A stretch of DNA of 27,025 bases from Candidatus Hydrogenedentota bacterium (GTDB lineage: Bacteria; Hydrogenedentota; Hydrogenedentia; Hydrogenedentales; SLHB01): positions 1-27,025 of the forward strand of contig BTWA01000053.1 of assembly GCA_045863295.1 (NCBI GenBank). Direction: 5' to 3'. This document shows, one piece after another, positions 15,132 through 19,248 of this stretch. Each line of letters starts with the position of its first letter. Position 1 is the stretch's first letter. A program made the translations under genes and the position numbers. The notes under the pieces were generated by a model that did not search any database, was not told the DNA's origin, and saw only the letters and a list, made by a program, of their open reading frames with translations.

Positions 15132-15740
15132 ATGCCTTATTCCCTACCGCCGCTTCCCTACGCGCAAAACGCGTTGGAGCCGCATATTGACGCGAAGACG
15201 ATGGAAATCCACCACACCAAGCACCATCAGGCCTATATCAACAACGCCAACGGACTGCTGGAAGGCACGGGGTATGAAGATAAGCCCGTGGAAGAGTTGC
15301 TCAAGAACATTCAGTCGATTCCCGAGGACAAGCGCCAGGGCCTGATCAACAATGCCGGCGGCCATGCCAACCACTCGTTGTTCTGGCAGATTATGGGACC
15401 CAACGCAGGCGGCGAACCCGTCGGCAAACTCGGCGAGGCCATTACCACGGAGTTGGGCGGTTTCGCGGCCTTCAAGGAAAGTTTTGCCAAAGCCGGTGCG
15501 ACCCGTTTCGGCAGTGGCTGGGCTTGGCTCGCGGTCGATAGCAACAAGAAGCTCAAGGTGTTGAGCACCGCAAACCAGGACTCGCCCATAATGCAAGGGC
15601 TCAAGCCCGTACTCGGCCTCGACGTGTGGGAACACGCGTATTACTTGAACTATCAAAACCGCCGTCCCGACTACATCACGGCCTTCTGGAACGTGGTGAA
15701 CTGGGAAAAGGCGAACGAGTTCTACGAAGCCGCCCTGTAA
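15132..15740 (+). CDS. sodA: Superoxide dismutase, Mn-type signature
   Basis: [31 protein letters not shown] and [16 protein letters not shown]. Confidence 0.95.
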
Positions 15741-15768
15741 TTCGCGAACGGGTTATGAATTCCTGTAT

Positions 15769-15808
15769 GGGCGCCCCGTCTTGACCGTGCGGGGCGCCCT
15801 TTCTATTT
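15769..15808 (+). terminator. Rho-independent terminator of sodA
   Basis: GGGCGCCCCG (15769-78) / CGGGGCGCCC (15790-99) followed by TTTCTATTT. Confidence 0.8.
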
Positions 15809-15837
15809 GCCGGGTTGCGGCCTGACTCAAACGAGTC

Positions 15838-16371
15838 TCAGGCAGTAAACCGGACGGCATAGTACAACGCCAGGTACACTTTGAGATCGACTTGCGCCCC
15901 CTCTTGGCGTTTCTGGTCCAGCCAATGCTCGGCCTCGCCGATGGGCACGTCAAACACCGCGATATCTTCATTGTGCACGCCGCCGCCTTCGGCCACTCGG
16001 GTAAGGCCGGAGGCGATGTAGACCGTTATCTGTTCCGTGCTCATGCCCGCGGACGATGGGCCTTCCGTCACAAGTAGCCAGTCGGAAGCGGTATATCCAG
16101 TCTCTTCCAGCAACTCGCGTCGTGCCGCGTCAAGCATGGGCTCGTGCTCACTGCCGGTGTCATCCCCGACAAGCCCCGCTGGAATCTCGATGACGTTCGC
16201 CTGTACGGCGGGCCGATGCTGCTCGATAAGAATTACGCTGCCATGATCGGTCAATGGAACAATCGCGACAACACCGCTACCTTTCTTTCTCTCGCAATGT
16301 TCCCAACCATCGTTATCGACGAGGCGCAAAAAACGGCCTTCCCCAAGTACACGGGACTCACCATCGGTCAT
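15838..16371 (-). CDS. NUDIX hydrolase (ADP-ribose pyrophosphatase-like)
   Basis: EIPAGLVG...AARRELLEETGY Nudix box; AAGGAG SD. Confidence 0.88.
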   Translation of the reverse strand: MTDGESRVLGEGRFLRLVDNDGWEHCERKKGSGVVAIVPLTDHGSVILIEQHRPAVQANVIEIPAGLVGDDTGSEHEPMLDAARRELLEETGYTASDWLLVTEGPSSAGMSTEQITVYIASGLTRVAEGGGVHNEDIAVFDVPIGEAEHWLDQKRQEGAQVDLKVYLALYYAVRFTA

Positions 16372-16401
16372 TTAACACTCCTTGGCTATGACTTGCGGCC
16401 A

Positions 16402-16761
16402 TCAGGATTGGCCGGGTAATCCGGACAGTTCAAAGACCGGCCTGATTTCGACTGTACCCTTTAGGGCGCCCGGTATCCGGGCTGCGATTTCGACGGCCTC
16501 GTCGAGATGGGCTACGTCGACGAGATAATATCCGCCCAATTGTTCGGCTGTTTCGGCGAACGGGCCGTCAACGACGATTCGCTTGCCGTCGCGGATACGA
16601 ATGCTCGTTGCCGTCGTGACGGAGTGCAGCGGAGACGCGCCCAGGAATTGTCCTTTTTGGTGCAATTCTTGACAAAGCCTGGTGGATTCGCCCATGCACT
16701 CCATACGTTCCGCGTCCGTCCAGGCGGATTCAGCGCCGTATACCAGCAACATGTATTTCAT
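16402..16761 (-). CDS. YciI family (DGPF-domain) protein
   Basis: MKYMLLVY, DGPFAETAEQLGGYY and VEIRPV motifs; GAGG SD before ATG 16761. Confidence 0.88.
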   Translation of the reverse strand: MKYMLLVYGAESAWTDAERMECMGESTRLCQELHQKGQFLGASPLHSVTTATSIRIRDGKRIVVDGPFAETAEQLGGYYLVDVAHLDEAVEIAARIPGALKGTVEIRPVFELSGLPGQS

Positions 16762-16835
16762 CTCAACGTCCTCTAGTTGCATCAATGGTCCATTGCGTAT
16801 GCCGAACACGAATTACCGGATTGCAGGAACTTGAT

Positions 16836-16864
16836 TTGGCCTTGCAACGGCAAATTGATACTCT
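16836..16864 (+). promoter_or_regulatory. Putative promoter of the retron ncRNA-RT transcript
   Basis: TTGGCC (16836-41), 17-bp spacer, TACTCT (16859-64) with extended -10 TG at 16856-57; predicted start near 16871, just before the first arm of the inverted repeat. Confidence 0.5.
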
Positions 16865-16872
16865 GAATGTAA

Positions 16873-16975
16873 CTTGCCTTGGCGGCGCGTTCAATTGCGC
16901 GGGCCGGCGTTTCGCCGGCCGGGTCCCATGGGCCTGTTTGAGAATCACCAGTACTCTACAGAGTAGCAAGGCAAG
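16873..16975 (+). ncRNA. Putative retron msr-msd non-coding RNA
   Basis: Perfect inverted repeat CTTGCCTTG (16873-81) / CAAGGCAAG (16967-75) with inner-flanking G16882 and G16966. Internal hairpins: GCGCG-ttcaat-TGCGC, GGCCGGCG-ttt-CGCCGGCC, GGGTCC-cat-GGGCCT and TACTC-taca-GAGTA. Lies 56 nt upstream of a retron-type RT. Confidence 0.72.
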
Positions 16976-17005
16976 GCGGATGCCGGCGCCAAGACCGGCA
17001 TCCGC
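16976..17005 (+). other. Perfect 11-bp hairpin between the ncRNA and the RT ribosome-binding site
   Basis: GCGGATGCCGG-cgccaaga-CCGGCATCCGC with no U-tract. Confidence 0.7.
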
Positions 17006-17031
17006 GATTCAGCCATTACCGAGGGAACGAA

Positions 17032-17892
17032 GTGTCGCTATTCAAGAGTCTGTTCAAGGGTTCCGGACACGGCGTGGACGAACTCGCGCGCCGTATGGGC
17101 ATGTCCACCCAGGAATTGACCGCCCTCGTTCCCACGTATTCCTCGTTCTCTATTCCTAAACGCAGCGGAGGCCAACGGAAAATACTTGCTCCTGACCCGG
17201 ATTTGAAGCGCGTGCAGCGGCTCGTATTGCGACGCCTTCTGGCACGGCTGCGGTCGCACCCGCATGCCGTCGGATTTGAGCATGGACATTCGATTGTGAC
17301 TAACGCGGCGTGCCACGTAAATCAGGCCGTGGTGGCCAAGCTCGATATCGTTGACTTCTTTTCCAGCACCACAGCCAAGAGAATTGAGAAATACTTTCAG
17401 TTCATCGGCTGGAACCGTGAAGCCGCCGCGTTGCTGACAAAACTGTGCACCCACGAAGGCGCCCTCCCGCAAGGCGCTCCCACCAGTCCCCGCCTGAGCA
17501 ATCTGGTGAATTTCGGACTTGATGCCGGGCTGACCGCGCTGGCCGCACAGGCCAGCGCCACGTATACTCGATATGCGGACGACATCACCTTTTCCTTTCC
17601 CAAGGACGATATCGACAGCATCAAGTTGGTTCTCAACACCGCGCGGTTGAGCCTCGTGGAAGCAGGATACAAAGTGCACGTCCGGAAAAAACGCAAAGTC
17701 CTGCGGCGGCACCAACGGCAGCAAGTAACTGGCCTTGTCGTAAACCAAAAAGTTCAATTGCCGCGCAAGACGCGACGCTGGCTTCGCGCAGTGAGGTACC
17801 GCGCAGTGAATGGTGCCGAAGCGACGCTATCGCCAGCACAGATCGCAGGATGGGATGCCCTGGAACGGATGATTTCCTCACAACGTGGCTGA
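17032..17892 (+). CDS. Retron-type reverse transcriptase
   Basis: IPKRSGGQRKILAP, region X NAACH (NAxxH), DIVDFF, LPQGAPTSP, catalytic YADD and region Y QQVTGLVVN; GTG start with GAGGGA SD at 17021-26. Confidence 0.92.
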   Translation: MSLFKSLFKGSGHGVDELARRMGMSTQELTALVPTYSSFSIPKRSGGQRKILAPDPDLKRVQRLVLRRLLARLRSHPHAVGFEHGHSIVTNAACHVNQAVVAKLDIVDFFSSTTAKRIEKYFQFIGWNREAAALLTKLCTHEGALPQGAPTSPRLSNLVNFGLDAGLTALAAQASATYTRYADDITFSFPKDDIDSIKLVLNTARLSLVEAGYKVHVRKKRKVLRRHQRQQVTGLVVNQKVQLPRKTRRWLRAVRYRAVNGAEATLSPAQIAGWDALERMISSQRG

Positions 17893-17898
17893 CTGCGC

Positions 17899-19248
17899 CT
17901 ATCCCTTGCTTCCATTGCGAATGCAATAGACCCGCGCGGCCGTGCGAATCAGAAGATTGTCGCCGGCGATCGCGGGGGTAGCCATGCCCATATCATCTTC
18001 CGCCAGGGTATTTTGTCCCAGCAACTCGAACGTATCGCCCGCTTTTACAACAAAAGTCTCGCCATCTTCGTTCAGACAAAAGATCTTTCCATCATACGCC
18101 CAGGGAGACGTGGTGAAACCACCGGTTGCGGGAAATTTCTGCTGCTCGTAAATGAGTGAGCCGTCTTTGGCGTTATAGCAGGAAAACAGCGCGCGATCGT
18201 AGAGAATGTACATGCGGTCGCCGTACACCAACGTCGAGGGATTGTACGGTGCGGCCAAGGGTTGCGCCCACGCCACGAATTCGTTCGACGTTTGTCCCTC
18301 GGCCAACGATATGTCACCGCTGGCGCCGGGCTTAATTGCGAATACGGGCCGTTTTTTGTCGCGCACGTACCCCGAACTCAGGTATAGGAGCCCGTCCGCG
18401 GAATAAGGCGTGGCAATTGTAATGCTCGACATGCCCTTCAAGGACCATAGTTCTTTACCGTTGAGATCATACGATCGGGTGGCCCGAGTTCCCGGTGTCA
18501 CAATTTCAGTGCGTTGGTCGTTCACCCAAACATACGGCGTTGACCAATTGGACTTCTCTTCCCGCACAACCCGCCAAATCTCATTACCGGTCTTCTTGTC
18601 CAGCGCCCACAAATAGGATTCCTCGTCGTTGTCATTGACAATATAAAGCCGATCTTCATGCAGCACAGGCGATGCCGCCGTCCCCCAGCCAAACCGCGTC
18701 TTTTGCTGTTTTACCGGCCTTTCCCAAACAATATTGCCTTTGAAATCAAGGCACCAGAGTCCGAGGTTTCCAAAATACGCGTAGACATGTTCACCATCGG
18801 TGACGGGAGTCTCCGAAGCATAGCTGTTCTTGATGTGGCGCGAAGCGGTGGGCTTGCCTTCGTGCACTTGCTTTTCCCAGAGAACATCGCCGGAATCCAA
18901 ATCGAGGCAATATACCTTCCACACATGGACAGAATCCGGAGCGTCCTTGCGATCGCCGCCCAAATAAAGCCCCTTCTTCGCGTCTTCAATTTCACCCTGG
19001 CTAACGACCGTTGTAAGGAACACGTTTTTGCCCCAGACCACGGGCGAAGACCAACCCCGGCCAGGCATGTCGAACTTCCACGCAACGTTTTCGGTTGTGG
19101 ACCACGTTGCGGGCAGGTTCGTACCCTCTGCGATGCCGCGCGATTCCGGACCGCGGAATTGGGGCCAATGGGTCTGGCCATTCGCATGCATGGCTGTGAA
19201 AACGCACAAGACAAAAAGGACCGTACCGGTCAAGCGTTCATAGTGCAT
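17899..19248 (-). CDS. Secreted PQQ-like beta-propeller repeat protein
   Basis: Signal peptide, WPQFRGP, GWSSPVVWG, ASETPVTDG, WSTP and ATPAIA repeats. Confidence 0.85.
   Translation of the reverse strand: MHYERLTGTVLFVLCVFTAMHANGQTHWPQFRGPESRGIAEGTNLPATWSTTENVAWKFDMPGRGWSSPVVWGKNVFLTTVVSQGEIEDAKKGLYLGGDRKDAPDSVHVWKVYCLDLDSGDVLWEKQVHEGKPTASRHIKNSYASETPVTDGEHVYAYFGNLGLWCLDFKGNIVWERPVKQQKTRFGWGTAASPVLHEDRLYIVNDNDEESYLWALDKKTGNEIWRVVREEKSNWSTPYVWVNDQRTEIVTPGTRATRSYDLNGKELWSLKGMSSITIATPYSADGLLYLSSGYVRDKKRPVFAIKPGASGDISLAEGQTSNEFVAWAQPLAAPYNPSTLVYGDRMYILYDRALFSCYNAKDGSLIYEQQKFPATGGFTTSPWAYDGKIFCLNEDGETFVVKAGDTFELLGQNTLAEDDMGMATPAIAGDNLLIRTAARVYCIRNGSKG

Follow-up and report, generated by a model that had tools for sequence, protein, structure and literature searches.

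The locus described here raises two questions: whether a 103-base stretch (positions 16873-16975) in front of a reverse transcriptase (RT) gene encodes the msr-msd RNA of a retron, as had been proposed from the sequence alone, and how short a DNA such a cassette could be expected to make. The window, i.e. the whole stretch of DNA that was analysed, comprises 27,025 nucleotides of the genome of a Candidatus Hydrogenedentota bacterium. Judged from the comparison of related sequences, the answer to the first question is well supported: the 103 bases are a genuine and conserved retron ncRNA gene, which precedes its RT in a lineage without effector. The parts of the locus are the following.

16836-16841, + strand: -35-like hexamer TTGGCC of the putative ncRNA promoter (4/6 match)
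16859-16864, + strand: putative -10-like hexamer TACTCT, 17 nt after the -35 hexamer
16873-16881, + strand: a1, 5' arm of the closing helix, sequence CTTGCCTTG, exact complement of a2 over 9 bp
16882, + strand: predicted branching G, directly 3' of a1 (putative 2'-OH primer, a role taken from retron biology); invariant column (31/31)
16885-16900, + strand: msr hairpin H1, 5 bp including one G-U pair (MFE fold; 3/3 modelled pairs covary)
16902-16920, + strand: msr hairpin H2, perfect 8 bp with UUU loop; no other part of the RNA is as conserved (MFE fold)
16921-16935, + strand: hairpin H3, 6 bp with CAU loop (MFE fold; kept in relatives)
16936-16951, + strand: single-stranded linker of 16 nt with a GAGA motif, unpaired in the MFE fold of most members
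16952-16965, + strand: msd hairpin, 5 bp with UACA loop (MFE fold), first part of the predicted template, ending one base before a2
16966, + strand: unpaired G facing the branching G, directly 5' of a2; invariant (31/31)
16967-16975, + strand: a2, 3' arm of the closing helix, sequence CAAGGCAAG (inverted-repeat listing, RNAalifold, covariation)
16976-17005, + strand: GC-rich, terminator-like hairpin after a2, 11 perfect pairs (a perfect inverted repeat), without U tract
17021-17026, + strand: ribosome-binding site GAGGGA, as read from the sequence, 5 nt before the GTG start
17032-17892, + strand: retron-type reverse transcriptase of 286 aa (RVT_1, retron RT profiles, motifs)
17035-17067: RT residues 2-12, SLFKSLFKGSG, an LFxxLF-like peptide

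The minimum free energy (MFE) fold, computed on 16860-16990, gave H1 and H2, the short hairpin and the perfect 8-bp UUU hairpin of the sequence-only reading, and the repeat with an unpaired G on each inner side (G16882 and G16966) lies exactly where that reading had placed it. The arms of the repeat are 100% complementary and are separated by 85 nt. The features assigned to 16873-16975 are thus exact, yet the element itself appears to be larger, with a putative promoter upstream and a conserved hairpin at 16976-17005. No coding sequence was found inside the ncRNA. An Rfam scan of 15500-18500, with E values up to 10, returned only two unrelated sub-threshold matches. A further pairing can be drawn between 16878-16887, which takes in the 3' part of a1 and the branch region, and 16984-16993, on the loop side of the post-a2 hairpin; these 10-nt segments are 90% complementary. 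This candidate was rejected, as judged by eye it is not conserved among the relatives inspected.

Taken by themselves, the repeat and the fold of this single sequence are at chance level. The z-score of the fold was -1.65, with 9 of 200 shuffled sequences folding equally well, and the 27-kb window contained nine perfect 9-bp inverted repeats with a gap of 60-120 nt, compared to 9.2 +/- 3.7 in random (Markov-1) sequences. One such repeat had a G on both inner sides, where 0.67 were expected. What raises the element above chance is its position, 57 nt upstream of a retron-type RT encoded on the same strand, together with its conservation and covariation in relatives.

The RT relatives were obtained by scanning one genome per species; 509 were confirmed, and the best 80 of these 509 loci were kept. 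The approximately 40 closest relatives, which are 45-58% identical in their RT and come mostly from Planctomycetota, have an upstream region of the same layout: a variable a1 ending in C(U/C)UG, a G, H1, H2, H3, a linker, a variable hairpin, a G, and a2. The core of H2, GAUGUUUCGUC, is nearly invariant among them. The upstream regions of 31 of the closest relatives were aligned (alignment A1), and RNAalifold recovered a1/a2, H1 and H2 from this alignment. In the A1 consensus, where the a1/a2 anchors were set as the longest helix at the conserved motifs and the counts therefore lean towards pairing, 94.7% of the cells were paired (83.3% in shuffled alignments and 30-52% with slid partners), 13 of 19 pairs had changed on both sides, and the covariation score was 0.409 vs. 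0.186. No shuffle out of 500 reached the observed values for the percentage of paired cells, for the covariation score, or for the pairs or cells that had changed on both sides; the observed value for further pair types was reached by 17 of the 500. Covariation of the a1/a2 helix among homologues had been named as one check of the original claim, and 6 of the 8 aligned pairs of this helix had changed on both sides in the 31 sequences. For H2, 99.2% of the cells were paired and 4 of 8 pairs had changed on both sides, the loop and the closing pairs being invariant. Fourteen further cases were found by the covariance model without this choice of anchors, and separate MFE folds showed the same layout in most of the 31 sequences.

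The covariance model, R1, gave a full-length match in 41 of 81 sources, in each case on the RT strand and upstream of the RT. The matches end 12-324 nt before the RT match, and 10 of the 41 are outside the seed. With the 14 further relatives added to these 41 sources, the ncRNA layout was seen in 55 family members. The model missed three members of the RT clade (L012, L039 and L041), and in two loci (L037 and L051) the RT match is itself no more than partial. Three weak partial matches (E 0.05-0.28) upstream of type XIII-like RTs were disregarded. R1 also matched all four close RT homologues in related genomes and exactly one place in the window's own genome. In a sample of 135 genomes of the phylum it matched 15, at one place each, which represent 6 of 66 genera; the distribution in this sample is patchy but stable within genera. 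Where it occurs, this conserved and covarying structured RNA always stands on the RT strand, just upstream of an RT of this clade.

Both Gs, the one after a1 and the one before a2, are present in all 55 family members. In 48 of the 55 a hairpin of at least 4 bp starts at most 3 nt after H2, and 38 versions of its stem sequence were counted. Most members keep the sequence GGGUC in the 5' arm of H3. The length of the linker varies between 12 and 16 nt, and the linker of the closest relative is nearly identical to that of the window. The msr of this closest relative, whose RT is 68% identical, differs by a few bases, and its msd stem is UACACA/UGUGUA vs. UACUC/GAGUA in the window. Other species of the same group have the msd stems UUCACG/CGUGAA and UACACU/AGUGUA, and in two relatives of the group a1/a2 contains CCCG/CGGG instead of CUUG/CAAG. 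On this comparative evidence, a conserved msr combined with an msd that changes fast while keeping its structure is the pattern expected of a retron msr-msd. The identification of the RNA as a retron msr-msd is thus borne out by layout, by covariation, by association with the RT, and by the Gs present in 55/55 members.

The RT encoded downstream of the RNA begins 57 nt after a2. It matches RVT_1 (5.2e-17) and retron RT models (2e-79 to 1e-47), and contains NAACH at residue 91, YADD at residue 181 and VTG at residue 232. According to the parts of PMC7736814 and PMC6868368 that were available, NAXXH (region X), YxDD and VTG (region Y) are the marks of retron RTs. The locus thus combines the RT motifs with an adjoining ncRNA on the same strand, which is closed by a1/a2 and carries the G pair found in 55/55 members. 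Its assignment to a known type is less straightforward. The best PADLOC profiles for the RT were RT_XIII (265.8 bits) and RT_X (240 bits, full length), and the NCBIfam model retron_St85_RT was matched below its cut-off. For calibration, the RTs of distant loci scored 516-668 bits on RT_XIII, 358-466 on RT_III-A, 552-573 on RT-Protease_XI, 412-497 on RT-TIR_XII and 378 on RT_II-A, compared to at most 278 bits on any typed profile for the clade of the window's RT. In a quick IQ-TREE maximum-likelihood tree of 62 RTs, 46 rows, among them all RTs with the ncRNA, were placed apart from the typed RTs with 99% SH-aLRT support.

In approximately 20 of the relatives a single transmembrane (TM) helix is fused in frame to the N-terminus of the RT (Kyte-Doolittle mean of the best 19 residues 2.2-3.6; loci L003, L005-L009, L011-L014, L018, L019, L021-L023, L027-L029, L036 and L078). 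In the 62-RT tree the TM-fused RTs, about half of the lineage, are a nested group supported at 100%; the msd stems that go with them are longer. The relatives lacking the TM helix have, at the place where it stands in the other sub-clade, a short hydrophobic N-terminal LFxxLF-like peptide followed by a Gly-rich linker. When the RT N-terminus of the window was tested for its hydrophobic moment, the peptide was not exceptional and the best window of residues was the following helix, therefore the idea that the TM-less form is also at the membrane depends on position and motif. Many of the TM-less relatives have the same tip, UCGCA, in msd hairpins that are otherwise different (L004, L016, L034, L035, L002, L015, L086, and five relatives of L086 from the same genus); the corresponding sequence in the window is CUACAG.

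We looked for an effector in the neighbourhood of the cassette. Upstream of it there are a YCII and a NUDIX gene, downstream a PQQ/BamB-like propeller gene and ProRS, all on the other strand. None of the window's 27 ORFs contains a defence or mobile-element domain: the remaining ORFs with a Pfam match are all housekeeping, and 4 of the further 20 scanned had no match. PADLOC found nothing in the four nearest proteins besides the RT. Among 104 flanking ORFs of 38 homologous loci there was no recurrent domain, only unrelated housekeeping domains. The conserved effector gene or fused effector domain that completes the tripartite defence systems (types I-XIII) is thus absent here. The cassette is not syntenic between genera: the orthologues of the PQQ-propeller gene in two other genomes (G011 and G039) are on other contigs or at other places than the RT, and no YCII or ProRS gene was found within 1.5 kb of these orthologues.

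It is instructive to compare the cassette with the retrons described so far. The closest solved structure to the RT is the Ec86 RT (2.7e-36) of Retron-Eco1, type II-A, and the order of msr hairpins, msd and a2 is also shared with this retron. The msd stem of Ec86 is long, its msDNA measures 86 nt and an effector pair belongs to it, whereas the window has a 5-bp msd hairpin, a predicted template of at most 30-45 nt, and no effector. On the RT_II-A profile the window's RT reached 225 bits, vs. 378 for one type II-A-like RT. Retron-Eco6 (Ec48) produces an msDNA of 48 nt, and the template predicted for the window is shorter than this. Mestre et al. (PMC7736814, consulted in part) place Ec48 in type IV, with a 2TM effector. 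The same source, in its Fig. 2B legend, draws the opposing Gs for the IA/IIA1 consensus, to which the Ec86 group belongs, and the a1/a2 helix with two opposing Gs is a likeness between Ec86 and the window. Of the Ec86-like branch geometry proposed for our RNA, the opposing Gs hold in 55/55 members, but they are a general retron hallmark and indicate no special closeness to Ec86.

The two types with the best profile scores do not fit either. Type XIII gave the highest profile score, yet member-level RTs score 516-668 bits and the clade is separate from them in the tree; no SWIM/ARM protein of the kind found in type XIII was present in the window or among the 104 flanking ORFs. The type X profile was matched over its full length. 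The IHF-like/TM/VHL-beta protein of type X (cluster 2273; PF00216, PF01847) was found neither in the window nor among the 104 flanking ORFs, and the gene upstream, where type X has its characteristic gene, encodes a YCII protein on the other strand. The ncRNA of type X is listed as not determined in the part of Mestre et al. that was available (PMC7736814).

The retrons that are most similar by description are stand-alone cassettes. According to Mestre et al. 2020 (PMC7736814), (msr-msd)-RT cassettes of this kind occur in branches of RT clades 2 and 11, clade 11 being essentially actinobacterial, and a SPIRE survey of 2026 (PMC13712802) reports low-confidence 'clade11-B' candidates that are mostly from Planctomycetota; both sources are cited here from part of their text. 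The window's cassette resembles these stand-alone groups in having a retron RT and a cognate ncRNA but no effector gene, and the Planctomycetota hosts of its relatives fit the statement of the survey. It differs from clade 11 in that none of the best 80 of the 509 loci was named as actinobacterial. As for clade 2, the Ec107-like profile was not the best for the RT (214 bits, ranked 13th). Since stand-alone cassettes occur in clade 11 and the clade11-B candidates are mostly from Planctomycetota, it is possible that the window's element belongs to this catalogued but uncharacterised clade-11 group, with which it was compared by description only. The available parts of PMC7736814 and PMC13712802 mention neither a sub-clade of TM-fused RTs nor a hairpin after a2, and the literature on retrons in Planctomycetes, on clade 11 and on stand-alone cassettes, so far as its text could be consulted, describes neither this RNA, nor the post-a2 hairpin, nor TM-fused retron RTs.

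The ncRNA appears to have expression signals of its own. In 24 of 45 relatives an exact TTGAC is located 40-44 nt upstream of the last a1 base, followed in 22 of the 24 by a -10-like hexamer 16-18 nt further on; TANNNT starting 16-28 nt upstream of the last a1 base was seen in 28 of the 45, the background being 0.0047 per position. The window's own match is weak (7/12 overall) and a scan of 16700-17100 for consensus promoters and terminators yielded 0 sites, thus the evidence for a promoter comes from the relatives. Together these sequences suggest that the RNA is transcribed from a sigma-70-type promoter and begins at about 16871-16873, where a1 has its 5' end. On the other side of the RNA, a hairpin of at least 7 bp, starting at most 4 nt after a2, is present in all 44 assessable relatives, in each with a different sequence. 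It is followed by a T run in 23 of the 44; the window has no such run. Retrons do not usually have a terminator-like hairpin in this place, between ncRNA and RT. The hairpin seen here may serve to terminate the ncRNA, to attenuate RT expression, or to cap the 3' end of the ncRNA structurally. With the promoter and the post-a2 hairpin the RNA looks like a self-contained gene, and the RT must then rely on read-through or on signals of its own.

Four public sequencing runs were covered, all of them as assembled contigs, and two contigs from a wastewater run gave similarities to this region. One of them, of 151 nt, covers 16802-16950 with 3 differences; the run is labelled as RNA-Seq cDNA, but the contig was judged to be probably DNA and is uninformative on expression or ends. 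In the other contig, from the same run, a 36-base piece matches inside the RT gene, with flanks unlike the window.

The second question concerns the size of the template. Among the 45 members in which the a1-a2 distance was measured, none has a shorter one than the 85 nt found here. Among RTs without TM helix the median a1-a2 distance is 92.5 nt and the median length of the msd hairpin 10 bp (range 3-22), compared to 109 nt and 15 bp (range 8-21) among the TM-fused RTs. Other members of the sub-clade also have a small msd, therefore the minimal msd is a trait of the sub-clade, with the window at its extreme. The sequence-only reading had correctly described an RNA without the usual long msd stem, but this is not unique to the window, close relatives having hairpins of 5-8 bp. 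Similarly, the 45 nt that it had assigned to the template are indeed the length of 16921-16965, but the first part, 16921-16935, is a third hairpin, which is more likely to be msr; the start of the RT-DNA that it had quoted is the reverse complement of 16936-16965, a segment of 30 nt. The conservation of this hairpin, H3, in 48/55 members with 38 stem sequences makes it more likely that it is msr, probably the last msr hairpin, and points to a template of ~30 nt. Thus the template would probably be ~30 nt long if H3 is msr, and 45 nt if H3 is copied, and the product could be shorter than was thought at first. The G that precedes a2 is not known to be copied in Ec86. For the predicted RT-DNA of the window we have moderate confidence in an upper limit of 45 nt. 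The DNA hairpin expected in a 30-nt product has a predicted energy of -1.4 kcal/mol, and 107 of 200 shuffled sequences fold equally well. We know of no precedent for an msDNA so small and unstructured. The long stable msd stem-loop, a common retron feature according to the part of Mestre et al. at hand (PMC7736814), is replaced in the window by the 5-bp hairpin.

Taking these observations together, we consider it likely that 16836-17892 is a two-part retron without effector, a small RNA gene followed by the RT, which would carry out the standard retron reaction on a miniature template. Transcription would start from the sigma-70-type promoter at about 16871-16873, and the RNA would fold with a1 paired to a2. 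The RT would bind the conserved msr hairpins H2 and H3, H2 above all, which is the likely recognition site of the enzyme. With the 2'-OH of G16882 serving as primer, the RT would copy leftwards from A16965 (+/- one base), through the 5-bp hairpin and into the linker, and 16936-16951 would be the candidate zone for the 3' end of the RT-DNA. After removal of the template by host RNase H the product would be a very short branched msDNA of at most 45 nt, most likely ~20-30 nt, and as DNA it would have hardly any secondary structure. By ending or attenuating the RNA, the post-a2 GC hairpin would limit the expression of the RT. The cassette could then depend on a partner whose gene lies elsewhere, or the RT itself could be the acting part.

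Other explanations have to be considered. The chance level of repeat and fold in the single sequence is what would be expected of an accidental inverted repeat in an intergenic spacer, or of a functionless, decayed relic, but the strong covariation, the co-occurrence of the element with the RT across several phyla, and the intact RT frame with all its catalytic motifs make such an origin exceedingly improbable. It is also conceivable that the RNA is a structured leader or attenuator, which controls the expression of the RT and is reverse-transcribed not constitutively, or only after a trigger. Such a function would be in keeping with a promoter belonging to the RNA itself and with the terminator-like hairpin that stands between a2 and the RT in 44/44 relatives, and type VI retrons give no msDNA that can be detected when phage is absent, according to the part of 10.1101/2025.10.22.683967 that was available. 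Nevertheless, we find this explanation very unlikely, as the a1/a2 helix with its invariant opposing Gs and the RT with NAXXH and VTG constitute a retron priming apparatus, which an attenuator would not need, and the ncRNA contains no coding sequence.

A different kind of alternative accepts the retron ncRNA as true and places the boundaries of the template elsewhere. H3, or even more on the 5' side, could be copied, with an RT-DNA that reaches or exceeds 45 nt, or synthesis could stop inside the hairpin, giving less than 20 nt. In the available parts of Palka et al. 2022 (PMC8989520) it is stated that the 3' end of the RT-DNA cannot be predicted from RNA secondary structure and that termination depends on RNase H1 and tertiary folding, which leaves room for such boundaries; H3, moreover, varies in sequence and keeps its structure, as msd stems do. 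Against this, most members share the sequence of the 5' arm of H3 (GGGUC), as is typical of msr, and only the hairpin beside a2 varies in length (3 to 22 bp), as expected if that hairpin alone is the msd stem. We therefore regard shifted boundaries as improbable, and keep to the two-part retron with a miniature template as the preferred reading.

A more far-reaching interpretation can be offered tentatively, and we have considerable doubts about it as a whole. It would describe the cassette as a member of a distinct lineage centred on Planctomycetota, in which the ncRNA is an autonomous gene extending from its promoter to a terminator-like hairpin, there is no separate effector and the RT is held at the membrane, and in which the shortest natural msDNA is made, ~20-30 nt long and essentially unstructured. 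If this were true, the complex of RT and msDNA would be both sensor and effector. Apart from this interpretation, the work provides an ncRNA model, supported by covariation, for retron RTs of a clade that falls outside the typed profiles, and shows that the priming apparatus of a retron (a1/a2, the opposing Gs and three msr hairpins) can be kept while the msd shrinks to a hairpin of 5 bp. Confirmation of the product would set a new lower bound for the size of msDNA. The RNA would also represent a scaffold of ~100 nt for RT-DNA production; a retron census, cited from part of its text, found that editing was improved by shorter stems flanking the donor. The lack of an effector, the hairpin that separates ncRNA from RT, and the relatives with membrane-anchored RTs bear on the role of effector-less retrons.

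The genome contains a second retron-like RT, of 311 aa and 35% identical to the first (G000:C7:182251-182865; locus L083, ORF 1387-2322). The R1 model has no match beside it, and its best profile is that of the type VI RT, with 236.5 bits vs. 174 for the next.
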